NCBI GenBank assembly: GCA_963695335.1
Contig: OY968764.1
Location: forward strand, 768,001 to 832,000
Reading direction: 5' to 3'
From: an uncultured bacterium
GTDB lineage: Bacteria; Babelota; Babeliae; Babelales; Vermiphilaceae
Length of the DNA stretch: 64,000 bases
Every line of letters starts with the position of its first letter. Position 1 is the stretch's first letter. The notes beneath the pieces were generated by a model, which worked only from the letters and a program-made list of their open reading frames with translations, was not told the origin of the DNA and made no database searches. Of the stretch, positions 3,839 through 47,433 are shown one piece after another. Position numbers and translations under genes: made by a program.

Positions 3839-5218
3839 ATGAAATTAGTAAGTCAGCAGTCTGAAAAGATATATGCAATTGCGCAGGCAATTGCTCAGCA
3901 CAAAGGACGTGCATTGCTTGTTGGTGGTGCGGTGCGTGATATGACAATGAATCGTCCTGTTAAAGATATAGACATAGAAGTTTATGGTCTCTCTGAACAA
4001 CAATTGGAACAATTGTTATCTCAATTTGGACCAGTGAGCTTGGTAGGTAAAGCGTTTGGAGTGCTACGTATTCATGGTCTTGATGTTGATTGGTCTTTGC
4101 CACGTGCAGATAGTCCAGGACGTAAGCCAACAGTGGTTATTGATCCGCATATGCCAATTGAGGTTGCTGCGCGTCGCAGAGATTTGACGATGAATGCAAT
4201 GGCTTTTGATCTCATGATCAATGAATTAATCGATCCGTGTGATGGAATAAGCGATATTAAACATAAGATATTGCGTACTCCTGATGCACGTTTTTTTATT
4301 CAAGATCCGTTACGTTTTTACCGTGTGATGCAATTTATTGGACGTTTTGAGATGTGCCCCGATGATGAGTTGAATACATTATGTGCGGAAATGGATATTG
4401 CACAGATTTCACGCGAGCGTATTGAAGAAGAATTTAGAAAACTGTTTTTATTTTCACGGCGCCCATCGCTTGGTATCCGTTGGTTGTATACAATTGGACG
4501 TTTACATGATGTACTGCCAGAACTTGCTGCAACTGTTGGCATTGAGCAAGAGCCAAAATGGCATCCAGAAGGCGATGTGTTTGAGCATACAATGCAGGCA
4601 ATTGATGCTGCTGTAGAATTAATAGGCAAGTATGATAATGAATTTGATAAGCTTGTTTTAGTGTACGCCGCATTGTGTCATGATTTGGGAAAAGTTACAA
4701 CAACTATTGAAGTTAATGGTGTTATTAAAAGTATTGGGCATGAAAAAGAGAGTAAAAAGTTTGCGCGTACAATGATGAAGCGTATTACGCATAATGTTGA
4801 TCTGATTAATGCGGTTTCATCGCTTGTGTTGCATCACATGACACCATTGCAGTTTATTACTAATAATGCAAAAATGCCTGCATATAAACGATTGGCAAAT
4901 AAGTTAGCTCATAATGTTAATGTACTCATGCTCATTGATCTGTGCATTGCTGATAAACGTGGCAGAAATGGAAACAGTCATGAACCTTTGACGTGTGATT
5001 TTCCTGATGTAGAACTGTTTAGAGAAAAAGTTTTGCAGGCAGGGGTTTCTACCAGTGCAGTTGAGCCATTATTAAAAGGTGTAGATCTTCTTGATGTTGT
5101 GCAGCCAGGACCAAAAATGGGGCAGTTGTTAAAATTAGCGTATGAAAAGCAGATTGATGATGGTGTTACTGATAAAGACATTTTGAAAGAGTTTGTTAGA
5201 AGAATGGTTAAAAAGTGA
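3839..5218 (+). CDS. cca: CCA tRNA nucleotidyltransferase with HD domain
   Basis: VGGAVRD, DIDIE, RRDLTMNA, DPLR, ERI, HPEGDVFEHT, HDLGK; ATG 3839 chosen after AGGAG. Confidence 0.9.
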   Translation: MKLVSQQSEKIYAIAQAIAQHKGRALLVGGAVRDMTMNRPVKDIDIEVYGLSEQQLEQLLSQFGPVSLVGKAFGVLRIHGLDVDWSLPRADSPGRKPTVVIDPHMPIEVAARRRDLTMNAMAFDLMINELIDPCDGISDIKHKILRTPDARFFIQDPLRFYRVMQFIGRFEMCPDDELNTLCAEMDIAQISRERIEEEFRKLFLFSRRPSLGIRWLYTIGRLHDVLPELAATVGIEQEPKWHPEGDVFEHTMQAIDAAVELIGKYDNEFDKLVLVYAALCHDLGKVTTTIEVNGVIKSIGHEKESKKFARTMMKRITHNVDLINAVSSLVLHHMTPLQFITNNAKMPAYKRLANKLAHNVNVLMLIDLCIADKRGRNGNSHEPLTCDFPDVELFREKVLQAGVSTSAVEPLLKGVDLLDVVQPGPKMGQLLKLAYEKQIDDGVTDKDILKEFVRRMVKK

Positions 5219-35578: not shown

Positions 35579-37234
35579 ATGAATAAAAAAGTTGTACTAG
35601 CTTTGCTGTGTATGAGTAGTCATTGTATTGGAATGCGTCAATTATCCTATTCTAAGTCAGGTCCTGAGCAAAAGCACGTTCGCTATCGCCGTAAAATAAC
35701 TGAGTTTTCAGGTAATGAAAAAAAATATGTTTGTACATTGTTAGATTATGTTCAGCATAATGGAGTGGGCCCTTTGCGAACATGGTTAAAAGATAAAGCT
35801 GAGAGAGCGTGCTGTGGTCCTGGTATGATGATTCCTTTGCCAGATATTTTACAGCGTGTATTGCGTCATCCATCAAGTGCACACATATTGCATGAAGCAG
35901 TGAAGCGTTGTTATTACAATTGTGCTGAATTGTTGCTTACATATAATGCCCATCCGAATGCAGTAGTAAAGGGAGGTGACACACCTCTTCATGTAGTCCG
36001 TAGCAGTGTGATAGTGCAGTTATTAATGGATCATGGTGCGTGTATAGAACAAAAAAATGATGCGGGTGAAACACCGTTTTTTAAATGTATTAAAAATTCG
36101 TGTTTAGATAGAGCGCGTATTTTGTACGACGCTGGTGCAGACGTTAATGCATATAATAAAGCTGGTAACACTCCTTTGCATTATGCAGCTAAGTATTTAA
36201 AGCAGGATGTAATACAATTTTTATTATATCGTGGGTCGAATATTGATTGTGTGAATACAGTTGGCGAAACGCCTTATCAAATTATACACAAACGTGGTGG
36301 ATCTGTTTTAAAAGCATTTCGAGAGTGGAAAAAATTTTTCCGCGTGATTAATGCTACCGCAAAAGAAAATAAATCTTTGTCGATTATGAGTTTGTTAGCT
36401 CATGATGCAAAGCAGTTAAAACATATTCTTATACACAATTCTGATGGATATTGTTCTCAGGATATAGCTATTGCTGAAAAATTATTTAATCAGTGCAGTG
36501 ATGAGGTTTGGGATGCATTAACATCTAACAGTTCTCAGGCTCATAAAAAATCTTTAATGCTTGCACGGTTTATACAAAATAGGTCTCGGCATCGAAAATG
36601 TTTTTTGGATGCATTGCGGAGTAATGATTTTCGTGAGGCTCATCATTATGTAGAAATAAATCCTCATTTGTTACATACATATGAAGGTGAGTATGAAAAA
36701 GATGAAGTTAATGCTCTTTTTGCGGATAAAGTTATTTATTCCTGCATAAATAATGATCAATATCATTATTTGCAAACAATGATGTATAGTGGCTTTTTTG
36801 ATCTTGATTATTGTGATGAATGGGGAACTCCGCTACTTTCTCTAGTTATTCAAAATGCTGATGGTGGTAGTAAATATCTTGAGCTATTAAAAGCTGGTGC
36901 GCCGGTGAATATAAAGGATAACTATGGTAGAACACCACTGTTTTATGCCGTAATACTGGAAAATAAAGATATGATATCACATTTATTATTATACGGTGCA
37001 GTTGTTAATCAAGATTTTGCTGAATTACTTAATTTGTCGGATGAAATGTGGATATTGATGAATGATGCATATGGCAAACAAAAATGTGTTAAATGCGAAA
37101 CTCATGATCATGATCTGGCTAGTATCCCTTGTGTGAATAGACACTTGGGACATTTTATTTGTAAGCATTGTTATAAGAAATGTTTTGGAAGATGTCCCAT
37201 GTGCCGACGTTCTATGGGAACGTTTGGTTTGTAA
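35579..37234 (+). CDS. Secreted ankyrin-repeat protein with C-terminal RING-like finger
   Basis: GDTPLH, GETPF, GNTPLHYA, GRTPLFYA; CVKC...PC...H..C..C...CPMCR. Confidence 0.85.
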   Translation: MNKKVVLALLCMSSHCIGMRQLSYSKSGPEQKHVRYRRKITEFSGNEKKYVCTLLDYVQHNGVGPLRTWLKDKAERACCGPGMMIPLPDILQRVLRHPSSAHILHEAVKRCYYNCAELLLTYNAHPNAVVKGGDTPLHVVRSSVIVQLLMDHGACIEQKNDAGETPFFKCIKNSCLDRARILYDAGADVNAYNKAGNTPLHYAAKYLKQDVIQFLLYRGSNIDCVNTVGETPYQIIHKRGGSVLKAFREWKKFFRVINATAKENKSLSIMSLLAHDAKQLKHILIHNSDGYCSQDIAIAEKLFNQCSDEVWDALTSNSSQAHKKSLMLARFIQNRSRHRKCFLDALRSNDFREAHHYVEINPHLLHTYEGEYEKDEVNALFADKVIYSCINNDQYHYLQTMMYSGFFDLDYCDEWGTPLLSLVIQNADGGSKYLELLKAGAPVNIKDNYGRTPLFYAVILENKDMISHLLLYGAVVNQDFAELLNLSDEMWILMNDAYGKQKCVKCETHDHDLASIPCVNRHLGHFICKHCYKKCFGRCPMCRRSMGTFGL

Positions 37235-37312: not shown

Positions 37313-37585
37313 TTACGCGTTTTTTGAAGCGGCTGCAACTTTTTGAGCTAATTTGCTGATTTTGCGAGCAGCGGTATTGCGGTGCAATAAACCTTTACCT
37401 TTTGCGCGAGCGATTTTGCTTTCAGCTTCAACAAGCAATGTTTTTGATGCTGCAATATTACCAGCTTCAATTGCTGCGATAACTTTTTTAACAGCAGTTT
37501 TGAGAGAAGATTTTCTTGCTTGGTTGCGAGATTGGCGTTTTACGGTTTGTAAAACACGTTTTTTTGCGGATTTAATATTTGCCAT
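37313..37585 (-). CDS. rpsT: 30S ribosomal protein S20
   Basis: MANIKSAKKR...HRNTAARKISKL. Confidence 0.97.
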   Translation of the reverse strand: MANIKSAKKRVLQTVKRQSRNQARKSSLKTAVKKVIAAIEAGNIAASKTLLVEAESKIARAKGKGLLHRNTAARKISKLAQKVAAASKNA

Positions 37586-37610
37586 AGTACATCTGACCTT
37601 GACTTAAATT

Positions 37611-37814
37611 TTAGAGAACTTTTTTAACTTTGCCTGATTTGAGGCATTTTGTGCAAACTTTTGTGCGGTGAACGTGATTTTTTGCGTCACCGGTCACAGT
37701 ATAGCGCATTGTATGCACGTTCGGGTATACCCAACGTTTTACTTTGTTATTTGCGTTACTGACCAAATTTGCTACTTGTGGGCCCTTTGAGCACACTCCA
37801 CAGATTCTTGACAT
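37611..37814 (-). CDS. rpmB: 50S ribosomal protein L28 (Zn-binding form)
   Basis: MSRICGVC...[15 protein letters not shown]...VCTKCLKSG. Confidence 0.93.
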
Positions 37815-37948
37815 GATGAATACCTTACTTTAAAGCCTATTTATTTATCTTTTAAGATATCAAAAAGAGAAAATTTTACAAGTTTTTTCCCTAATCTCCA
37901 CTGGGGTCCCCATTGTAATGAAGTGAAAATGGGGTTTAAAAGATGGGG

Positions 37949-39781
37949 TTAAATTAACTTATGTGCCTGTCTTGGCTCTATACCCAATAAAGCATAGATT
38001 TCATCAGCATGCATGGTCTCTTTTTCAATCAAAGCGTTAGCCAATATATCCAGCTTATCACGATTGTTTTTAAGCAATGCGTACGTCTGTTCGTGATAAA
38101 GTTTGGTTAAACGTTGTACCTCAGCATCGATTTTTTCAGCAGTTTTTTGAGAATATTCAAAATCACCATGTTGCTGGCTATAGATGATGGTACCTAATTC
38201 ATCGGACATACCATAATGGGTTACCATATTACGAACTATGCGGTTTGCTGCCTGAAAATCGCTATATGCGCCCGTGGTGAGCTTATTGAATATTATTTCT
38301 TCTGCCACGCGGCCACCAAGTGCCGACATGACTGATGCTTCCATCTCTTCTTTGCTCGTGATGTATTTTTCACGTTCAGGTAAGAAATGTGTGACACCTA
38401 ATGCAGATCCACGAGGGATAATGGTTACTTTGTGCAGCGGATCAGATGTTTCCGGTAATAAAAGACGCACAAGGGCATGGCCAGCTTCATGGTACGCGAT
38501 GAGTTTTTTGTCTTCATCAGTGAGCATGATACTTTTACTTTCTTTACCGAGCATCACTTTATCGCGTGCTGCATCAAAATCATGGATAGTTACGATATCT
38601 TTATTTTCTTTTGAAGCAATGATAGTAGCTTCATTAACCAAGTTGGCAAGATCTGCGCCAGAAAACCCTGGGGTTCCTTGAGCGATCTTTTTGACATCAA
38701 GACCTTCTTCAGCCATAACATTCTTGATGTGTACGCCAAGAATTGCTTCACGGCTTTTTAAATCTGGGTAAGGAACAGTCACGATGCGGTCAAATCTTCC
38801 TGGGCGCAAGAGTGCTTTATCCAAGACATCTTTTCTATTGGTTGCAGCAATAACAATTACCGGAGTTGGAGATGTTTCAAAACCATCCATTTCAGCAAGG
38901 AGCTGGTTGAGCGTTTGTTCGCGCTCATCATTGCCGCCACCCATGCCACTGCCACGATGACGTCCAACAGCATCAATTTCATCAATAAAGATGATGCTTG
39001 GAGCATGTTTGCGTGCTTGTGCAAAAAGATCACGGACACGTGCAGCGCCTACGCCAACAAATACTTCGATAAAATTTGAACCGCTGATACTAAAGAATGG
39101 ACAGTTTGCTTCACCAGCAACGGCGCGTGCTAATAATGTTTTGCCGTTTCCTGGTTCACCCACCAGTAATACTCCGCGAGTAATTTTGGCACCAAGGCGT
39201 TCGTACTTCTGAGGATTTTTAAGAAAGTCGATAACATCTGCAAGCTCTTCTTTTGCTTCATCAGCACCAGCTACAGAGCTAAAGCGTTCTTTGATGCTTG
39301 CAGGCAAGAACATACGAGCACCACTTTTACCCATAGTAAAAATATTGCCACCACCACCATTGGCACCAGCGCTGCGAGAGCGGATAAAGTACCAAATAGC
39401 CCAGATAGCAACAAATAAACATGAGAATAAAAAGAGGTACCAGATACCCAGTTGATTGGTTGGTGAAATGACTGAAAATTCTACATTATGTTTACGTAGA
39501 CGGTCCCAATCACTCGCATTATTACCAATAACTGTTTCAAAGCGATTACCATCAGTAAAGAGACCTTCAACATCTTGCCCCGAAATATATACTTTTTTAA
39601 TGAGGTTTTGGTCGATCTTTTCTAAGAAGGTGGAATAAGAGATAACTTGAACATTTCTGCCGAGCTCAGTTAATTTATGCAGCACTAAAAGGACGCCTGC
39701 AAGAATAACAAAGGTAACGATAGCATTTTTGAGATTTTTTGGACTTGGGGTCCAGAATTTATTATTTTTGGGTTTTTTCAT
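37949..39781 (-). CDS. ftsH: ATP-dependent zinc metalloprotease FtsH
   Basis: Two TMs, [25 protein letters not shown]. Confidence 0.97.
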
Positions 39782-39869
39782 ACAAATTCATCTGCTTTTT
39801 GAGGTTTATGAGGATATTACGAGTAAAATACCATTCTTATAGTAACACAATCATGAATTTTGTCGATGC

Positions 39870-41150
39870 CTAGCTTACCACAGGAAAATTCTGATACGTT
39901 GGTCCCCAGTGAGGGTAACTGCAAATATCTTGAGCATTTGTTATATATTTTGTTGTATGCGTGAGGAGATTAAGCGTGCAAAGTTGACTGTTTTTACCTG
40001 GAATTTCATGCGCAAACAGCAGCTGCGTTCCACAGGGCGACCAACTGGCTTCATGTTTATCGCCCGCGTTTTTAGTTAATTGTGTATGTGTTTTGGTTGC
40101 GCAATCATAGACCATAACTTGCATGGCACCTTGAATCATTTTGTGATAAGAAATTTTATGAGTCTTTGGGCAGTAGCTTGGTGTGGTGCAATATCCGCCA
40201 TGAGTGATGCGTTGTAAATGTCCTGTTTGCAGATTGCCGATATAAATTTGTGGATTACCTTTTTGAAAATCTGAACAAAAGCAAAGATGATGTTCATCAA
40301 TAAAAATAGGTGACGTATTATTTCCCGTGTTTTGTGTGCACCGTTTTAAGTTGCCATCATCAACAAGATAAATCTGACAACTTCCACTGCCGCGAGAAGA
40401 GCAATAAGAATATGATTTTCCATTCGGGGAATAGCAAGCAAGCATGTTGATACCATCAAAATTGGCAACTGGTTTTCTTTTCTTATTCATAGTAACGGAC
40501 ATCAATTCAACATTGGTGTTGGCATACTCTGAATATAAAATACGTGGTTCTGTGGTGTGCCAACGTGGTGCAACCGTAATAGTTGGTAGATTAACGAGTA
40601 ATTCTTCATTGCTGCCATCAAAATCTGCTATATAAATTTTTCGTAATGATTTACCGGCATCATTTTTTGAATCTTTACAATATGCAATGCGTGAACTGAA
40701 AAAGCCTTGATTCCCGGTTAATTTTTGGAATGTTTCATTTGCAACCGTATGCGCCCATTCACGTGCAAGAGTATTTTTTTTACTTTGTTTTTTTCCACAT
40801 ATCATAGTGCATTGCATGGTATCATATAATCGCCATGCGATACTGTTTTTTGATTCGCTGCTGATACATAAGGCAAGCGGTGTTCCGCAATTGCACAGTT
40901 GTTGCATATTTTTTTTGAGAACTTTGCTTGATGTATTTGCATCGTATTTTGTGATGGTAGCTTTAAATTGATCGGTAAATTGTAAATCTTTTTTGATAGT
41001 TGCGGCAATATCATTGAGCTGATTGTTTTTGCCATCAAGTACGATGATTGCGATTGGCATTTGCGTTTGTTGTGCACCAGAAATGGTTAATGCAATATCA
41101 TTTGCTTGCGCAGAAAATATGATCCATAAAAAGAGATACAATTTTTTCAT
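39870..41150 (-). CDS. tolB: Tol-Pal beta-propeller protein TolB
   Basis: Signal peptide from MKKLY; LTGNQGFFSSRIAY, IADFDG, PD40-like repeats; synteny. Confidence 0.85.
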   Translation of the reverse strand: MKKLYLFLWIIFSAQANDIALTISGAQQTQMPIAIIVLDGKNNQLNDIAATIKKDLQFTDQFKATITKYDANTSSKVLKKNMQQLCNCGTPLALCISSESKNSIAWRLYDTMQCTMICGKKQSKKNTLAREWAHTVANETFQKLTGNQGFFSSRIAYCKDSKNDAGKSLRKIYIADFDGSNEELLVNLPTITVAPRWHTTEPRILYSEYANTNVELMSVTMNKKRKPVANFDGINMLACYSPNGKSYSYCSSRGSGSCQIYLVDDGNLKRCTQNTGNNTSPIFIDEHHLCFCSDFQKGNPQIYIGNLQTGHLQRITHGGYCTTPSYCPKTHKISYHKMIQGAMQVMVYDCATKTHTQLTKNAGDKHEASWSPCGTQLLFAHEIPGKNSQLCTLNLLTHTTKYITNAQDICSYPHWGPTYQNFPVVS

Positions 41151-41158
41151 GAAATTCC

Positions 41159-41791
41159 TTATATGCATTCAAGTTCTTTAATTTTTGCATCTATTTTTTG
41201 CAATAGAACTCTACTTTCGTAGAGAGCAAGGTCATTAGTACCAAGAATAAACCAAATGCATTGCTCAAATATTTCATCAATAGACATTTGAGTAAGTTCA
41301 ATAGGGAGATTGCTGTTGCGGCATATTTGACAATGTTTAGTGAAAAGAGACTGTAATAATGTTTGTAACTGTCTTGTTGTGTCTTTATCAAATTTTGACT
41401 TTGCATACGGAAGAAGATGATGAGATATTTCATCGAGAGTAAGAGGTTTTATATGAGTGCATATGAAGTTAAAGGCAGGAGTTACTCGTTCTGATGTCTT
41501 TTGTTGTAAGTGAATAGAGCTTTTGTAAAAATCGTCACTCAGGTTGCAACAAAAAATCATTCCCGTTACTTCTTCTATATCTTCTGGTGATTCGCAATCA
41601 TCGAAATCCAGCATAAGTTCTTCCCATCTATCATGCATAGTTTTCAGATGCTTTTGTAATGTAGCTTTAACATTTTGCAAATGTTTCAATAATTGGGTTT
41701 TGTTTATTTGTTTGCTTGGTATGGGATTGGTAATGGCAAAAAATGAGATAGAGCTCAGTGTTAAAAAAGCTGCGAATAGATGCTTGTTCAT
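41159..41791 (-). CDS. Hypothetical exported protein
   Basis: Signal peptide; GGAG RBS. Confidence 0.6.
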   Translation of the reverse strand: MNKHLFAAFLTLSSISFFAITNPIPSKQINKTQLLKHLQNVKATLQKHLKTMHDRWEELMLDFDDCESPEDIEEVTGMIFCCNLSDDFYKSSIHLQQKTSERVTPAFNFICTHIKPLTLDEISHHLLPYAKSKFDKDTTRQLQTLLQSLFTKHCQICRNSNLPIELTQMSIDEIFEQCIWFILGTNDLALYESRVLLQKIDAKIKELECI

Positions 41792-41847
41792 CGTGGTTCT
41801 CCAAATGTTTTAAAAATGTTTGTGCGTAATTGTATCATGCCTGTTTA

Positions 41848-42697
41848 GGTTCTGTTGAGTTTTTGAAAAGATAAGTTTTGAAGTATGATAACACCGAAAA
41901 AGCAAAAACCAAATCACTAAAACGGTGCTATCATGAAAAAAGAGTATATCAGCGAAATGGCCTGGAGCAAAATTTTTAATTTTTTAAAACAGCAAAAAAA
42001 CATTTATATAAAAGAAGAAAAGGACTGTAAAAAGTTTATAGAAGGGACATTTTGGATGGCAAGAACAGGAGCACAATGGAGAGAGTTGCCGGAAAAATAT
42101 GGAAATTGGAATAGTGTGTTCAGCAGATTTAATGCTTGGTCAAAAAAACATATTTGGGAAAAATTACTCAGTTTTTGTGCAGAGGATCCCGATATGGAAT
42201 ATGTAATGATTGATGCCACGATAGTCCGCGCACATGCCTGTTCTGCTGGATATGATCAATTTAAAAATGAAGGACTGGGAAGAAGTAAAGGTGGTTTTAC
42301 AAGTAAGATACATGCAACAGTAGATGCTTTAGGCAATCCTTTAAGATTTGTTATTACTCCTGGTCAGCGTAATGATATTACTCAGGCTGATATTTTATTA
42401 AAAGATATTTCTGAATCATATGTAATAGCGGATAAAGGATATGATTCCACTGAATTACGTTCGAAATTAATAGAAAAAAATTGTGTTCCCGTTATTCCTC
42501 CAAGATCCAATCGTAAAGAACAATATCAATATGATGAACATCTATATAAAGAGAGACATGCGATTGAATGCTTGTTTTCAAAGATAAAACACTTTAGAAG
42601 AGTGTTTGCTCGTTTTGATAAATCGGCACGAAATTTTTTATCTTTTCTTTCTTTTGTGGGAACTTGCATATGGTTACGATGAAAACTCAACAGAACC
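41848..42697 (+). mobile_element. IS5-family (IS427-like) insertion sequence, intact
   Basis: IR GGTTCTGTTGAGTTTT / AAAACTCAACAGAACC; TA on both sides (41846-47, 42698-99); exact ends ambiguous by a few bases because the palindrome extends into the flanks. Confidence 0.88.
41933..42682 (+). CDS. IS5-family transposase (single ORF)
   Basis: RTGAQWRELP..YG.W, IDATIVRAH, GRSKGG.TSKIH, ADKGYD, YKERHAIE. Confidence 0.93.
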   Translation: MKKEYISEMAWSKIFNFLKQQKNIYIKEEKDCKKFIEGTFWMARTGAQWRELPEKYGNWNSVFSRFNAWSKKHIWEKLLSFCAEDPDMEYVMIDATIVRAHACSAGYDQFKNEGLGRSKGGFTSKIHATVDALGNPLRFVITPGQRNDITQADILLKDISESYVIADKGYDSTELRSKLIEKNCVPVIPPRSNRKEQYQYDEHLYKERHAIECLFSKIKHFRRVFARFDKSARNFLSFLSFVGTCIWLR

Positions 42698-42718
42698 TAA
42701 AATCAGTAAGTTTTTCAT

Positions 42719-43519
42719 TTAATCAAATTTATATATTTCTAAAAGATTTTCTTGAGGGTTAGAAAGATTGCTACTTAAGATGACAAAATGATTATCATTA
42801 AGAAATTTTGCTCTTAAAAAGATATAATCTACATGAGGTTTTAAAATAATTTTGTCTTGCTCGTTAATTATTTCTATTTTTTTTTCATGAATAAATAAAA
42901 ATATATTATTACTACATTCAACGTCATGCCATCCCTTACTGAATCCCGTAACAATATGTTGCTTGTCTTGTTGGAAATTAAAAAAACTTACAATACTACT
43001 GCTTTGGAAAATGAAAGATTGTTTGTTTGGATAAAATGTTAAAATATTGTATTTCCTGCATATATTCCAAAAATCAAAAAATGAAGGATAATCTTTTTCT
43101 ACTGTATCGCTAGATACGGGATGTAATTTGTTTGATGTAAAATCCAATTGATAAAAGTTATCATTAAGGGTTGTTAGGATAAGAGTATTATTATTCCAGT
43201 AATAATTTGGTGAAAGTATTTCTTCGTTAAAATCTTTAGGTAGAGTGATGGTATAGGGGGTAGGTGTTTTTAGATCTGTATAAATTATTTGATGAGCATC
43301 TGGTAAATAGAGAATAATAGCGCTACCATCATATTTTTTGTAGACAGAATATATAGAGGCTTTTTGTGGAATAACTAATTTTCTTTGAATGTGTAACGAA
43401 TTATCAAGTAGTAGTAGTCCTTGATTGTTATCGTTAATAATGATTGTGTTATCATAATTATCTAAAATATAGATATCATTTTTTTTAAAGTACAATTCAG
43501 CCGTTTTTTGAGTTGTCAT
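42719..43519 (-). CDS. Candidate immunity protein (beta-strand rich, no signal peptide)
   Basis: Starts 8 bp after the toxin stop; very AT-rich; no recognisable family. Confidence 0.5.
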   Translation of the reverse strand: MTTQKTAELYFKKNDIYILDNYDNTIIINDNNQGLLLLDNSLHIQRKLVIPQKASIYSVYKKYDGSAIILYLPDAHQIIYTDLKTPTPYTITLPKDFNEEILSPNYYWNNNTLILTTLNDNFYQLDFTSNKLHPVSSDTVEKDYPSFFDFWNICRKYNILTFYPNKQSFIFQSSSIVSFFNFQQDKQHIVTGFSKGWHDVECSNNIFLFIHEKKIEIINEQDKIILKPHVDYIFLRAKFLNDNHFVILSSNLSNPQENLLEIYKFD

Positions 43520-43527
43520 ATTATTGC

Positions 43528-45387
43528 TTATTTCAGATTTAGTTTTTTATTTTTGTCTGCAGTATTTTTGATCAATTGTCCTGTAATAGGATCAGCTTCT
43601 CCAAGATGTATTCCCTGTTTGTTATAAACTTCTAAATGGGCACCTTTTCCTCTGTGAAGAGTGTCTCGGTGATAGAATAAGTTGTCTTTTGTATATACTT
43701 GAGCACCTTTTACTGGGGCTATTTTTGTTTTTTTAAAATGAGTGCTATGCAAAACGATTTCTCGATCTAAAGGTATGCGGTTTTGTTGAATAAATTCTGG
43801 AATTATTTTTTCAATACTATTCTTTAAACCTGATGCCGTAGCTTGTCCCGATCGCTTTAACTTATTGGCATTTGTTGTGGCTTTAAACAGCAACCCTTCA
43901 GGGGTTGTAAGATATTCTTGTGGATTGAACAGAGAACTGTTTTTTGCAAAGGTAATACTTTTTTGTTTAATTGTGTTGCAGAATTTTCCTAATCCACCAA
44001 GTAATCTACTTTGCGCCATTAAGCTGACGCCAACCGCGGTACCATTTTTAACTGCATCGCGTAATGATATTTCTTTGTTATAGATTCTATCAATGACACT
44101 GTTTAATGGTTCAGCGTAATGATTCCATTTATCCTTTGCTTTATCAATATTGGTTATTGCAGTAAACCCAATATCTGCAACGTTATAAAGAACTTTGGAG
44201 AGTTGATATGCAAGTAACGGTTTGCTTGCAACCATAGAAACTGTTGCTTCAATAGGATTGTTCAGAATATCAGTGACTGCTGATTGTATGCCAATTGCAG
44301 CACCTTCAGCAACTGCTTGGCCGTAATCAAGCAGTGTCCAACAAAAATCGGCAATAGTAGTTGCTTTATCGGTAAGACCTTTATGGTTGCAATCAACCAT
44401 TGCCACAGTAAAATCGATTAATGCTTCTTGATGATCATACAAAACTGAAGTTGGTGATAGATGATCAATACGATTAAGTAAATCGAGTGATTCTTGATGA
44501 AGTGCATGTTGTAGTTTATTACCAGAGCATTGTGTAAAACATACTGCGTCATAGTTATATTTATGCAATAATTGCTTAACATTGTTATTGAGATTGTATG
44601 ATGTACTTGTGTAGTGCAGAAAATTATCAGCTCCTGACAAATTATGATATGCATCTAACCGTTTATTAATTGCGGCTGATAATGAAGGCGCATATTCTTG
44701 ATAAATAGATTGTAATTCTTTGTATTCAGATGTTTGTGTTTGAAATGTCTCAAGAGAATGATCGCGCAGAACTGGTTCATTACAAACTGGTTGCTCATGC
44801 TTAAGGTTCTTTAATTGATTGTATAAATAGTGGATGCGTTCTTGTAGGCCTGAGCAATAAGTACCTTTGATGGAGTACCAAATTTTTTGCAACCAATGAA
44901 GATTTTTTAATTCAGCATGTAGCTGTTGGATGGTGCATTTGTAACCTGAATATGTTTGTGTATATTTTACGAATTCATCAAACATATACAAACAGCGCTG
45001 ATTAAGTATTTGGCTTTCTGTGTATCCGTGTGACGAAAAATGTTTTTGAAAATCTTGAGCGTTATATTGTTTAAAATGCTGTTTATAAGAAGGTGATGTG
45101 TTGATATTGTTCCGTAATGGATCATGGGAAAAATCAGCATGTGATGTATGTCTATCATTTTTATAATTTGTTTGATGCCAGGAGTGAACTATTGTGGCAT
45201 GAGAATCTTTTGCAGTGATGGGGATAGATAATAGAGTGACAAAAAATGTATATGATAGATTCCTCTTTGCGCTCGTTCTGAACTTGTTGAAGAATATCTT
45301 CGAGCGCTCTAAGATACCCTTCAACAGGTTCAGGGTGAGCGCATAGATTGTAAAGATAGGTTTATATGGTGCATTCATTTTCATCAC
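43528..45387 (-). CDS. Secreted polymorphic toxin with C-terminal colicin E3-like rRNase domain
   Basis: C-terminal YHRDTLH...HLEVYNKQGIHLGEADPITGQ; trunk aligns with 19060-21003. Confidence 0.75.
   Translation of the reverse strand: MMKMNAPYKPIFTIYALTLNLLKGILERSKIFFNKFRTSAKRNLSYTFFVTLLSIPITAKDSHATIVHSWHQTNYKNDRHTSHADFSHDPLRNNINTSPSYKQHFKQYNAQDFQKHFSSHGYTESQILNQRCLYMFDEFVKYTQTYSGYKCTIQQLHAELKNLHWLQKIWYSIKGTYCSGLQERIHYLYNQLKNLKHEQPVCNEPVLRDHSLETFQTQTSEYKELQSIYQEYAPSLSAAINKRLDAYHNLSGADNFLHYTSTSYNLNNNVKQLLHKYNYDAVCFTQCSGNKLQHALHQESLDLLNRIDHLSPTSVLYDHQEALIDFTVAMVDCNHKGLTDKATTIADFCWTLLDYGQAVAEGAAIGIQSAVTDILNNPIEATVSMVASKPLLAYQLSKVLYNVADIGFTAITNIDKAKDKWNHYAEPLNSVIDRIYNKEISLRDAVKNGTAVGVSLMAQSRLLGGLGKFCNTIKQKSITFAKNSSLFNPQEYLTTPEGLLFKATTNANKLKRSGQATASGLKNSIEKIIPEFIQQNRIPLDREIVLHSTHFKKTKIAPVKGAQVYTKDNLFYHRDTLHRGKGAHLEVYNKQGIHLGEADPITGQLIKNTADKNKKLNLK
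45269..45342. repeat. Repeat-A doublet, in frame in the toxin N-terminus
   Basis: GCGCTCGTTCTGAACTTGTTGAAG...CCTTCAACAGGTTCAGGGTGAGCGC. Confidence 0.9.
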
Positions 45388-46355
45388 TGTTTAAAATCAA
45401 TTGTAAATGGTTTTCCATATGTCCATTGCGGCATTTTCATTGCAAAAAGCGCTTGACGTACAGAGATATCAAACATCATAACACCTGAGTTTTTTATCAT
45501 TTTTATATTTTCTATTTTTCCCTTTGATGTAACAAAAAAAGATATTTCACACATACAATCTGGCGATACTCCAATGGGAGGTTTCCATGTTTGAACAATT
45601 TCTTTCTGCAGCTGTGCTTGTTTGCGCAGTGCTTCTACTTCGCGATAGTTATGAGAAATTTGCGCGTTGTCTGGGATAATTGCTGCGCCCTCTGGAGCTT
45701 TAGCGAAGGATTGCGGGATAATTGTCTGGTTAGTGTCTAAAGCTTGTGCAATAGGTGTAGGATTTATATATGCTGGTTTAACTATTTCTTTTTTTTCTTC
45801 AATCTTTGGTTCTAGTTTTTTCACATCTGTTTTAGCAGATGTGTCCGCCGAAGCTTTAGCGAAGGAGGATGGAGCTTGTTTTGGAAGTGCTGGTTTTACG
45901 GGTTCAGTTTTCTGCGCAATTTCCTGTTTTGGGATTTCTTGTTTAGCTGGTTCTATCTTTTTTATATCCGCCGTCTTGTCCGAAGAAGCCTTGGCGGAGT
46001 CGGAAGTTTTAACGGAGGAGGAGGGTACAGCAGCAACAGTTGTTGGTTTTTTGGTATCAGTTTTACCGGGTGTTGCTGGAGTTGCGGGTTTTGGCTTGTT
46101 CACAGTAGCTTTTTGAGGGACTACTTTTGTTGGAGTTGTTTTTATAGGCGTTGTAGTAATGCCAAGTGGTACAAAAAAAATGGGCGTAGAATAACCCAGT
46201 TTTTTGTTTATAGACAGTGACAGCATGTAACTGTTGTCACGATATACGCAAAACACCCAAAATAAAAAAACAAGATGTAAAAAAAGACAAGAGCCTAAAA
46301 GTTTAACCCAAAGCAGGTGTCTTTTGTGAATGTTTTTGAGTTGCAAGAGCCACAT
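45384..46355 (-). CDS. tolA: TolA/TonB-like protein with in-frame B repeats
   Basis: N-terminal TM with S-x3-H (SCLFLHL), Pro/Lys/Thr linker, C-terminal W.PP...SG...FD.SVRQAL domain; synteny. Confidence 0.75.
   Translation of the reverse strand: MWLLQLKNIHKRHLLWVKLLGSCLFLHLVFLFWVFCVYRDNSYMLSLSINKKLGYSTPIFFVPLGITTTPIKTTPTKVVPQKATVNKPKPATPATPGKTDTKKPTTVAAVPSSSVKTSDSAKASSDKTADIKKIEPAKQEIPKQEIAQKTEPVKPALPKQAPSSFAKASADTSAKTDVKKLEPKIEEKKEIVKPAYINPTPIAQALDTNQTIIPQSFAKAPEGAAIIPDNAQISHNYREVEALRKQAQLQKEIVQTWKPPIGVSPDCMCEISFFVTSKGKIENIKMIKNSGVMMFDISVRQALFAMKMPQWTYGKPFTIDFKQ
45685..46022 (-). repeat. Four B-family copies inside tolA (45685-45714; 45839-45869; 45963-46022 containing nested 45975-46004)
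   Basis: TCCTTCGCTAAAGCT and ACTCCGCCAAGGCTT cores on the minus strand. Confidence 0.82.
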
Positions 46356-46749
46356 ATTTTATACCACCAACAGATTTAATATCATCAACTAATTCAATTA
46401 CAGTTCCGTATGAAATTGCTGTATCAGCTTTGACGTATACGGTTTTTTCATGATCATTGCCAACAGTTTTTTTGATATGAGGGATAAGGTCTGCTTTGGC
46501 AATTTTTTCTTTATTAACATAAAAATCACCTTGCTTATCAATAAAGACAATTAACTCAGTTGGTTGATTATTTGTATCTTCTTGAGCATTACCACGTGGC
46601 AACGTTACTTTGATTGCATTTTGCAAAACGGGTGTTGCAACCATAAAAATAATTAATAACGTGAGTGCAGTATCAATCAATGGTGTCATAGAAAGATCGT
46701 GTAAGATGCTTTGTTTTCTGCGAGATCGTCTATTGTTACGTATGCGCAT
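46303..46749 (-). CDS. tolR: TolR/ExbD
   Basis: MTPLIDTALTLLIIFMVATP, KAD...YG. Confidence 0.88.
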   Translation of the reverse strand: MRIRNNRRSRRKQSILHDLSMTPLIDTALTLLIIFMVATPVLQNAIKVTLPRGNAQEDTNNQPTELIVFIDKQGDFYVNKEKIAKADLIPHIKKTVGNDHEKTVYVKADTAISYGTVIELVDDIKSVGGIKYVALATQKHSQKTPALG

Positions 46750-46755
46750 GAGCTA

Positions 46756-47433
46756 TTACCTTTCACGATGATACTGGAAAACAAAAGTGATGCGGTCAGC
46801 GAGTGTAATAAGTTGTTGTTCTAATGCGCGTGTTTTTGTATGTAAATAGTTGAACATAACAAGCGCTGGAATTGCAACAAGTAAACCTGCAAGTGTTGTG
46901 ATAAGAGCTTCTGCAATACCTGGTGCAATAGTGGCAATATCAGCAACTTGTGTTTCACTGATGCGTATGAATGCATGAATAAGTCCCCATACGGTTCCAA
47001 AAAGACCAAGCAATGGCGCCACGGCAGCGCTTGATGATAATATTGGTATGTATTCTTCATTGTGCGTGAGCATTGCATCAATTGTATTATCGATATTTCT
47101 TTCTAACAGTTCCCATTCATAGGGATTGATTTTTTGATTGATGTCACTCACTATTTCTTTTAAAAAACTGAGATTTCTGGAGATAAAATAAGCTGGAGCA
47201 GTATTGCGTGCGCTACTGGTTATTTCAACAAGTGTTGTAACTGTTTTTGCAGCTTGAGCTTTTTTATTGATGTTTTTGAATTGTTGTTCTTTGATGCGCA
47301 GCAGTGCAAGTTTGCCCAAAAATACAGCCCAACATGCAATGGACATGCCGAGTAATATGAGAAGTACAATTTTACTCACCGTATCGGATTGATATACCAG
47401 TTGCCAGAGAGAGTTGCCAGAGAAAATGTTCAT
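46756..47433 (-). CDS. tolQ: TolQ/ExbB (MotA/TolQ/ExbB family)
   Basis: APLLGLFGTVWG, APGIAEALITT.AGL.VAIPA. Confidence 0.9.
   Translation of the reverse strand: MNIFSGNSLWQLVYQSDTVSKIVLLILLGMSIACWAVFLGKLALLRIKEQQFKNINKKAQAAKTVTTLVEITSSARNTAPAYFISRNLSFLKEIVSDINQKINPYEWELLERNIDNTIDAMLTHNEEYIPILSSSAAVAPLLGLFGTVWGLIHAFIRISETQVADIATIAPGIAEALITTLAGLLVAIPALVMFNYLHTKTRALEQQLITLADRITFVFQYHRER

Follow-up and report, generated by a model that had tools for sequence, protein, structure and literature searches.

Group A colicins enter cells by way of the Tol proteins, and the locus described here raises the question of why a toxin gene with a colicin E3-type end should lie inside the tol operon of a member of the Babeliales, bacteria that are intracellular parasites of protists. 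The locus lies in a window of 64,000 nucleotides (nt), the whole stretch of DNA that was analysed, which covers positions 768,001 to 832,000 of the forward strand of contig OY968764.1 (GenBank assembly GCA_963695335.1) from an uncultured bacterium of the Vermiphilaceae; the host genome is a single contig of 1,366,684 bp. Between tolA and tolB the window carries an islet made up of a 619-codon toxin gene, a candidate immunity gene, an insertion sequence (IS) and a gene for a 210-residue protein. The locus is a polymorphic toxin system: its trunk is undescribed, and its place in the tol operon is unusual but recurs. We put at roughly 0.6 the probability that it is an accessory islet exploiting a permissive, transcribed spot, with a role in competition and not in Tol function.

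Gene order at the locus

Genes were called from a listing of open reading frames (ORFs) and from hidden Markov model (HMM) scans of the window proteins against Pfam and NCBIfam. Both bore out the gene order and coordinates of the original prediction, which on the minus strand run tolQ, tolR, tolA, a 619-aa toxin ORF, a 266-aa ORF, a 210-aa ORF and tolB, with an IS5 element on the plus strand between the 266-aa and 210-aa ORFs. Genomes, loci and proteins used for comparison are cited below by G, L and P numbers.

41160..45385, minus strand, whole inserted islet (toxin gene, immunity gene, IS5 and 210-aa gene; blastn against G037)
43528..45387, minus strand, polymorphic toxin gene, 619 codons (ORF; 108 homologs with a common trunk and varied tips)
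42719..43519, minus strand, candidate immunity gene, 266 aa (follows E3-type tips in L047 and L096)
41159..41791, minus strand, 210-aa islet-specific gene (homologs at the same place in L043 and L047)
46756..47433, minus strand, tolQ (PF01618, 3.7e-33; TIGR02796, 1.8e-42, 145.5 bits, equivalog cut-off 221)
46303..46749, minus strand, tolR (PF02472, 4.3e-24; TIGR02801, 4.5e-26)
45384..46355, minus strand, tolA-like gene (PF13103, TonB_2-type C-terminal domain, 1.2e-6)
39870..41150 (ORF to 41168), minus strand, tolB (TIGR02800, 1.9e-68; PF04052, PF07676)

The Tol proteins were recognized by Pfam domains scoring above the cut-offs, their NCBIfam equivalog scores lying under the cut-offs. The TolA-like protein, aligned with nine orthologs, has an N-terminal membrane anchor (hydrophobic residues 19-37), a Lys/Pro/Thr-rich linker and a TonB_2 C-terminus. 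As judged by relatives, the ATG at 41150 is the more likely start of tolB. The 4-nt overlap of the toxin start with the tolA stop that had been predicted is real if the toxin starts at the GTG at 45387; its second codon, an ATG at 45384, overlaps the tolA TGA by 1 nt.

Insertion between tolA and tolB

In the closest species representative, G037 (TolB 84% identical), the sequences corresponding to window positions 37481-41159 and 45386-45677 are adjacent by blastn, and the tolA stop lies 13 nt from the tolB start, versus 4226 bp in the window. The tolA-tolB spacer measures about 12-190 nt in all nine congeners covered (G019, G037, G090, G116, G206, G207, G209, G210 and G211; G208, 73% complete, was left out), and the islet is in none of them. 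Judged by these alignments, positions 41160-45385 are shown to be an insertion relative to the congeners. Across the order, 127 of the 151 genomes sampled have tolQ and tolB on one contig and strand, and in 124 of these 127 the two genes are 1106-2003 bp apart, a compact block that agrees with the earlier statement that tolQRA and tolB are normally contiguous. The outliers are the window genome (5590 bp), G146 (5465 bp) and G048 (3097 bp).

In G146, which belongs to another family of the order, six unrelated ORFs lie between tolA and tolB (L044, 2719-6643): three paralogs of ~270 aa, a WapI-like immunity protein (PF24716, 6.7e-21) and two small ORFs, without a trunk toxin. This set may be an immunity-gene island at the same tolA-tolB site. 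Its ~270-aa paralogs were compared with the 266-aa ORF of the window as possible kin and found to be unrelated. The tolA-tolB spacer of G048 holds a leucine-rich repeat gene, and in four of the nine islet-free congeners (G090, G116, G210 and G211) it owes a length of about 170-190 nt to palindromic repeats like one found in the window toxin gene; two of these were located as follows.

L039 4545-4733, spacer repeat of G090
L041 about 4110-4250, spacer repeat of G116

Since four congeners have such repeats there, the spacer is a repeated landing site. The original prediction had named an insertion hotspot as the alternative to a functional link with Tol, and that alternative gains support from the repeats in the four congeners and from the unrelated genes in G146 and G048. 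The tolA-tolB gap would be favoured as a permissive, constitutively transcribed spacer that attracts other insertions too.

The toxin: tip, trunk and N-terminus

The toxin can be divided into three parts. The tip is of the type found in the ribosomal RNA nuclease (rRNase) colicin E3.

43531..43839, minus strand, colicin-E3-type rRNase tip, residues about 530-619 (PF09000, 6.6e-6, 26.8 bits, tip alone)
43828..45081, minus strand, conserved helical trunk, residues about 103-520 (alignment and AlphaFold model; ends at the TPEGLLFKAT..NKLKQSGQ motif)
45208..45249, minus strand, predicted Sec signal-peptide core YTFFVTLLSIPITA, then KDSHA (aligns with the N-termini of P0004 and L046)

On the whole toxin PF09000 scored 23.2 bits against a gathering cut-off of 22, and on the whole protein of the L047 ortholog 18.3 bits, under the cut-off. 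An E3 tip was found in ten of the 107 other homologs, and PF09000 matched all 11 tips of the E3 type at E values up to 1 (best 5.1e-6). The motifs R-D-x-x-H and A-H-L-E are invariant in the 11 tips and may hold the counterparts of the colicin E3 catalytic residues D510, H513 and E517. Identity between the tip of the window toxin and that of P0002 is 97%, and none of the 30 residues invariant among the tips has been lost in the window. A model of the tip alone had a predicted local distance difference test score (pLDDT) of 74.8, and its four top Foldseek matches were all colicin E3 RNase (1jch_A, 4udm_B, 1e44_B and 2b5u_A; probability 1.00, template-modelling score 0.42-0.51, 24-28% identity, E 0.013-0.03), followed by the E3-like CdiA-CT of Enterobacter cloacae (4NTQ, E 0.1). 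VIA-align of the tip against 48,161 chains ranked 4v5k_AY first (Z 7.3, root-mean-square deviation 3.7, 80 residues aligned) and 4ntq_A second (Z 5.0), with all others at Z 4.4 or lower. Searches of PDB sequences with the tip, the tip profile and the whole-protein profile gave no match. The tip is thus shown to have the sequence signature and the predicted fold of the colicin E3 rRNase domain.

PADLOC models of NsnC also match the toxin, over residues 534-618 (5.4e-11), so this candidate phage-defence protein seems to end in the same kind of domain.

At E <= 0.001 the toxin has 108 homologs, all named ones from Babeliales or Dependentiae. They have a common trunk and differ over the last 80-130 residues. 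In the AlphaFold model of the whole toxin (pLDDT 60.9), residues 23-102 are disordered, residues 103-360 are helical at pLDDT 73-93, and less confident helices run to about residue 530, followed by a small beta-rich tip. No Pfam family was found on residues 1-530; the whole-toxin model gave no Foldseek match at E <= 0.001, 2b5u_A and 1jch_A being listed only at E 0.27-0.51, and VIA-align returned generic helical bundles only (Z <= 6.6). Because the whole-toxin model is weak, the trunk fold is not shown to be new. The description of the toxin as colicin E3-like therefore holds for the tip only, by PF09000 and by fold; in none of the tests run did the trunk look like a colicin. The N-termini of the homologs, judged by reading, look like Sec signal peptides.

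The border between trunk and tip is sharp in pairwise comparison. Identity to the toxins of L046 and L043 is 70-93% before the boundary motif and 13-33% after it; identity to L047 is 79-86% over the tip versus 20-80% (mostly 53-73%) over the trunk. At least six tip types occur across the 108 homologs, and those annotated other than E3 include PF15534 (Ntox35), PF15524 (Ntox17), PF14436 (EndoU by the source's name), PF15526 (Ntox21) and PF18451 (a CdiA C-terminal domain). The toxin family is thus shown, by these alignments, to consist of a conserved trunk with exchangeable tips.

Two further features of the trunk family were observed. Behind the signal peptide, toxin residues about 62-105 form a disordered His/Asn/Ser-rich stretch with a semi-conserved SH-DFSH motif, present in family members whether tol-linked or not. 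The same genome also encodes a second, distant member of the family (G000:C1:1261565-1263626; L002 1129-3190) of 502 aa, which is 33% identical over residues 262-515, has another tip and is followed by a 178-aa ORF.

Candidate immunity gene and covariation with the tip

The 266-aa ORF starts 8 nt past the toxin stop, lies in the part of the region with the lowest GC content (0.26-0.27) and encodes a protein without a hydrophobic N-terminus or signal peptide. It matched no Pfam, NCBIfam or PADLOC family; ESM Atlas features gave beta-propeller-like clusters (DUF5050 and DUF4915, score 0.95), which is a lead only. Its family has 21 database homologs, six of which sit on contigs equal in length to those of E3-tip toxins and may therefore be their neighbours. 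Homologs stand directly behind E3-type tips in L047 and in G181 (L096). Since its family follows E3-type tips elsewhere, the ORF is likely to be the immunity gene of the toxin.

Other tips keep other company. Ntox35 tips are followed by a tetratricopeptide repeat (TPR) protein of about 245-270 aa (L049, L054 and L055), Ntox17 tips by an ORF of 134-139 aa (L063, L071 and L074), and E3 tips by the 266-aa family (window, L047 and L096), so that each tip type is shown, on gene order, to have its own kind of downstream gene. The tips of G090 and G211, which lie beside distant genes of the 266-aa family, were considered as E3 tips and rejected, PF09000 being absent from the whole proteins in Pfam; hhalign to the E3 tip profile gave weak matches (Prob 34-45%, E 2-4e-4, 24-28 columns covering D-x-x-H..HLE).

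Genes that look like immunity genes without their toxin were also found. Locus L047 has an ORF of the Ntox35-type TPR kind behind its E3 immunity gene, G210 has two genes of the 266-aa family behind another tip, and G019 has a broken remnant of such a gene. No orphan immunity gene or tip cassette was found in the window itself.

These patterns bear on the target of the toxin. As parasites of protists, the Babeliales might direct it mainly against the host: host ribosomes would be the substrate of the rRNase tip, with the immunity protein there only to shield the producer's own ribosomes until export. The decoding centre attacked by E3-type tips is conserved in all ribosomes, and eukaryote-like proteins, ankyrin-repeat ones among them, abound beside the toxin cassettes in the window and related loci. 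Polymorphism of tip and immunity gene together with orphan immunity genes is nevertheless the hallmark of conflict among related bacteria, such orphans would be useless against a host, and no host-delivery system was found linked to the gene, although no dedicated search for secretion genes was made. We regard a host effector as improbable, and competition between related bacteria as what the islet probably serves.

Recurrence of the tol-linked islet

A metagenome scan with the trunk alignment yielded 41 loci and a genome scan with the single protein one more, 42 in all, of which 19 were evaluable (near-complete trunk and at least 900 bp upstream). In four of the 19 (L043, L046, L047 and L057) a trunk-family toxin gene directly follows tolQ-tolR-tolA on the same strand. 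The toxin of L046 overlaps tolA by 4 nt and has a plain signal-like N-terminus; the spacer between tolA and the toxin gene is 9 nt in L057, 10 nt in L043 and 18 nt in L047. The genes of these relatives all share one strand, no spacer between them is longer than about 80 nt, and IS5 is in none of the four. In both loci that reach tolB, a homolog of the 210-aa protein is encoded directly before it (L043, 65% identical; L047, 56%). The five tol-linked toxin genes, that of the window included, have at least three tip types: the window and L047 carry E3 and L043 and L046 each another, and the toxin of L057 breaks off inside a tip that begins like that of P0017. TolB is only 65-81% identical across the islet-bearing lineages. 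The order tolA, toxin gene, immunity gene, 210-aa gene, tolB is thus shown to recur in other lineages and with other tips. The comparison of tolA-tolB intervals suggested in the original prediction turned up trunk toxins, other tips among them, in these four related loci; the insertion is therefore not unique to this genome, and trunk homologs are tol-linked elsewhere. Embedding in the tol operon is thus recurrent, co-expression of the toxin with tol is plausible, and the islet is probably transcribed with the operon.

The 210-aa protein has an N-terminal hydrophobic segment and is predicted to be exported; the stop of its gene lies 8 nt before the tolB ATG. It matched no Pfam, NCBIfam or PADLOC family and had no usable match in the ESM Atlas. 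The family is small, with 14 cluster representatives in 1.84 billion proteins and, outside the window genome, one weak match away from tol among the 151 genomes of the order. Its gene is independent of tip type and is found only in tol-linked islets. Because it stands before tolB in L043 and L047 and is nearly absent elsewhere, it argues for one origin of the islets of the window, L043 and L047.

The trunk tree unites the window with L046 and L043 (100/98), and the tolQ-tolR trees group these three as well, with the islet-free G037 nested among them (support 84-90 in the protein tree, 92/92 and 93/86 in the nucleotide trees). The phylogeny fits descent of the islet with losses.

The recurrence also bears on the other explanation offered at the outset, a mechanistic link in which the trunk, perhaps with the 210-aa protein, binds TolA or TolB to leave the periplasm of the producer or, in the manner of group A colicins, to enter a rival, the tolA coupling being kept for stoichiometric co-production. 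It would account for how close the toxin start stays to the tolA stop (coupled in the window and L046, 9-19 nt away in the other three loci), for an arrangement that persists across lineages so diverged in TolB while the tip changes, and for a 210-aa gene confined to tol-linked islets of any tip type; the SH-DFSH motif in the disordered stretch of the toxin is, in addition, formally like the short Tol-binding epitopes of colicins. Yet most members of the family have the same trunk and motif without tol linkage, the islet is absent from all nine other congeners examined, the same spacer takes up unrelated DNA, and the trunk showed no similarity to colicin translocation or receptor domains in Pfam, Foldseek or VIA-align. 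Away from tol, trunk genes occupy 15 of the 19 evaluable loci and include all copies in G019 and G140, which are far from tol. We therefore hold direct binding of Tol proteins to be unlikely, and favour an accessory islet at a permissive site: one that recurs and is dispensable, and that sits elsewhere, among unrelated genes, in those 15 loci.

Two observations concern the neighbours of such cassettes. In L049 (7976-12494) a toxin with an Ntox35 tip and its TPR follower are lodged between znuC/znuB and znuA, making this the second envelope-transport gene cluster, after the tol operon, that harbours a cassette. In the window, positions 35579-37234 encode a 551-aa protein with ankyrin-like repeats and a Cys/His-rich C-terminus that by reading resembles a RING-type finger; ankyrin proteins likewise flank toxin cassettes in the related loci L054, L063 and L071.

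Later additions to the islet

Two elements of the window islet are later additions.

41846..42699, plus strand, IS5-family IS (transposase 41933..42682, NF033580, 4.2e-79)
45268..45343, minus strand, 75-bp palindromic repeat (in frame, 5' end of the toxin ORF)

The IS5 element is 854 bp long with 16-bp inverted ends (GGTTCTGTTGAGTTTT / AAAACTCAACAGAACC), and its transposase scored 265.7 bits with NF033580 (cut-off 110). The genome has another five copies, 99.9-100% identical, and the site is otherwise a 73-nt spacer; the element is a recent, genome-specific addition. As the original prediction proposed, it may uncouple tolB from transcription of tolQRA. A promoter-like site at 41829-41858 on the minus strand (TCAACA in the IS end, TACAAT in the flank, 18-nt spacer; a weak consensus match) points towards the 210-aa gene and tolB, which could be transcribed from it again in spite of the IS; such sites were no commoner than in shuffled sequence (37 versus 36.6).

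The palindromic repeat is present at 89 sites of the genome; 32 of the copies reach a length of 65 bp or more. As RNA the window copy would form a hairpin of -47.5 kcal/mol (z -6.0). Of the 32 long repeats, twelve fall within open reading frames of 150 codons or more, and nine of these twelve are at the very 5' end. The repeat is reminiscent of the Rickettsia palindromic elements, which insert in frame into genes, and the reading frame stays open through it in three toxin genes (window, L043/P0007 and P0015).

Together the two elements suggest another explanation, that the cassette is a decaying remnant, made inert when the repeat and IS5 disabled export and read-through of the operon. The repeat stands in frame 50 nt past the start with its strong hairpin, no alternative start precedes the signal-peptide core, IS5 is recent with identical copies elsewhere, and G019 has its broken immunity-gene remnant. 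Against this, the reading frame of 619 codons is full length and unbroken, the tip has kept its 97% identity to that of P0002 and every invariant residue, the in-frame read-through of the repeat in L043/P0007 and P0015 suggests that it is tolerated, and the immunity and 210-aa genes are intact. We consider decay very unlikely, the least probable of the explanations set out here. What the accessory-islet and Tol-binding explanations leave, a small part of our overall expectation and larger than that given to Tol binding, covers the host-effector and decay explanations together with any not considered.

Preferred explanation and points against it

As an accessory islet with a role in competition, the locus would work as follows. 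Translation of the toxin would begin at a start codon coupled to the tolA stop, and Sec would export the product; the trunk would give it a route into a rival cell, where the tip would cut 16S rRNA in the decoding centre. In the producer, the tip would be blocked by the 266-aa protein in the cytoplasm. The islet would have arisen once in the genus, been inherited with the tol genes and at times been lost (as in G037), tip and immunity gene being swapped by recombination at the TPEGLL...KLKQSGQ boundary.

Several points weigh against this account. The trunk tree needs three changes for the five tol-linked genes, at least two of them forced by well-supported branches, so a single origin is not shown by the trunks; the discord could stem from exchange between paralogs, from spread of the tol-linked copy to other loci, or from repeated capture at the site. 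The positions of L047 and L057 lack resolution in the tolQ-tolR trees, and with the islet in none of the nine other congeners examined its range rests on four unplaced contigs. Among sequencing runs searched for the stretch, no RNA run was listed, and four DNA runs of a single study contained 0.08-0.19 of its words. The immunity role of the 266-aa protein, though likely, is read from gene order and covariation only. The window toxin has no ATG, GTG or TTG between the repeat and the signal-peptide core, which leaves a 45-residue extension before the core and makes export uncertain. Tight tolA coupling in five lineages and a 210-aa gene independent of the tip could mean more than position, and the target of the toxin may be a bacterium or the host.

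Relation to known systems

Polymorphic toxins and E3-type rRNase tips are already well known, and the locus can be set beside three of them. Like colicin E3 and cloacin DF13 (PF09000; 1JCH, 1E44, 2B5U and 4V5K), the window toxin has a C-terminal tip of ~90 residues and a likely immunity gene downstream. Unlike colicin E3, it has a Sec-like N-terminus, shows no match to colicin translocation or receptor domains, and is encoded on the chromosome inside the tol operon; colicin genes are plasmid-borne, with an SOS promoter and a lysis gene. The candidate immunity protein, with 266 residues and no family, is unlike Im3, a small protein of about 85 residues.

In the CdiA-CT/CdiI pair of E. cloacae (4NTQ), too, an E3-type tip sits on an unrelated delivery trunk, and the immunity protein is no relative of Im3. 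CdiA is a very large filament of two-partner secretion with CdiB, whereas the window trunk has about 460 residues, is helical and predicted to be Sec-dependent, and has no partner transporter gene nearby, secretion genes not having been sought. MafB of Neisseria is similar in its signal peptide, conserved N-terminus, variable C-terminal toxin, downstream immunity gene and orphan cassettes; no relation in sequence was found, the window trunk having no Pfam family, and the window toxin further differs in having no gene for a MafA-like lipoprotein and in its location in the tol operon.

Among the listings and abstracts returned by a full-text literature search, no relevant paper on toxins or Tol of Dependentiae/Babeliales was found. 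Within that coverage, three features appear to be unpublished: a trunk without a Pfam family or an informative structural relative, whose named homologs are all from Babeliales/Dependentiae; a toxin-immunity module that recurs within the tol operon in five lineages or more, with coupling to tolA and with tips replaced in place; and a tiny family of predicted exported proteins (210 aa) tied to the tolA-tolB site.

Significance

The locus is a natural test of whether linkage to the Tol genes is a regulatory convenience or a delivery mechanism. It is doubtful that the islet is a working part of the Tol machine, that is, a chromosomal, Sec-exported, colicin-like weapon whose trunk and 210-aa partner use TolA/TolB. 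If it were, this would explain why translational coupling to tolA is kept while the killing tip is swapped, and the toxin would be the first encoded within the operon exploited by colicins, and this in a phylum whose members are obligate intracellular bacteria; a trunk that engages Tol proteins would be a case of Tol-dependent protein traffic independent of colicins. On the reading that we prefer, an accessory islet at a permissive, transcribed site, the reduced genomes of these presumed intracellular parasites would keep and diversify weapons aimed at their own kin.

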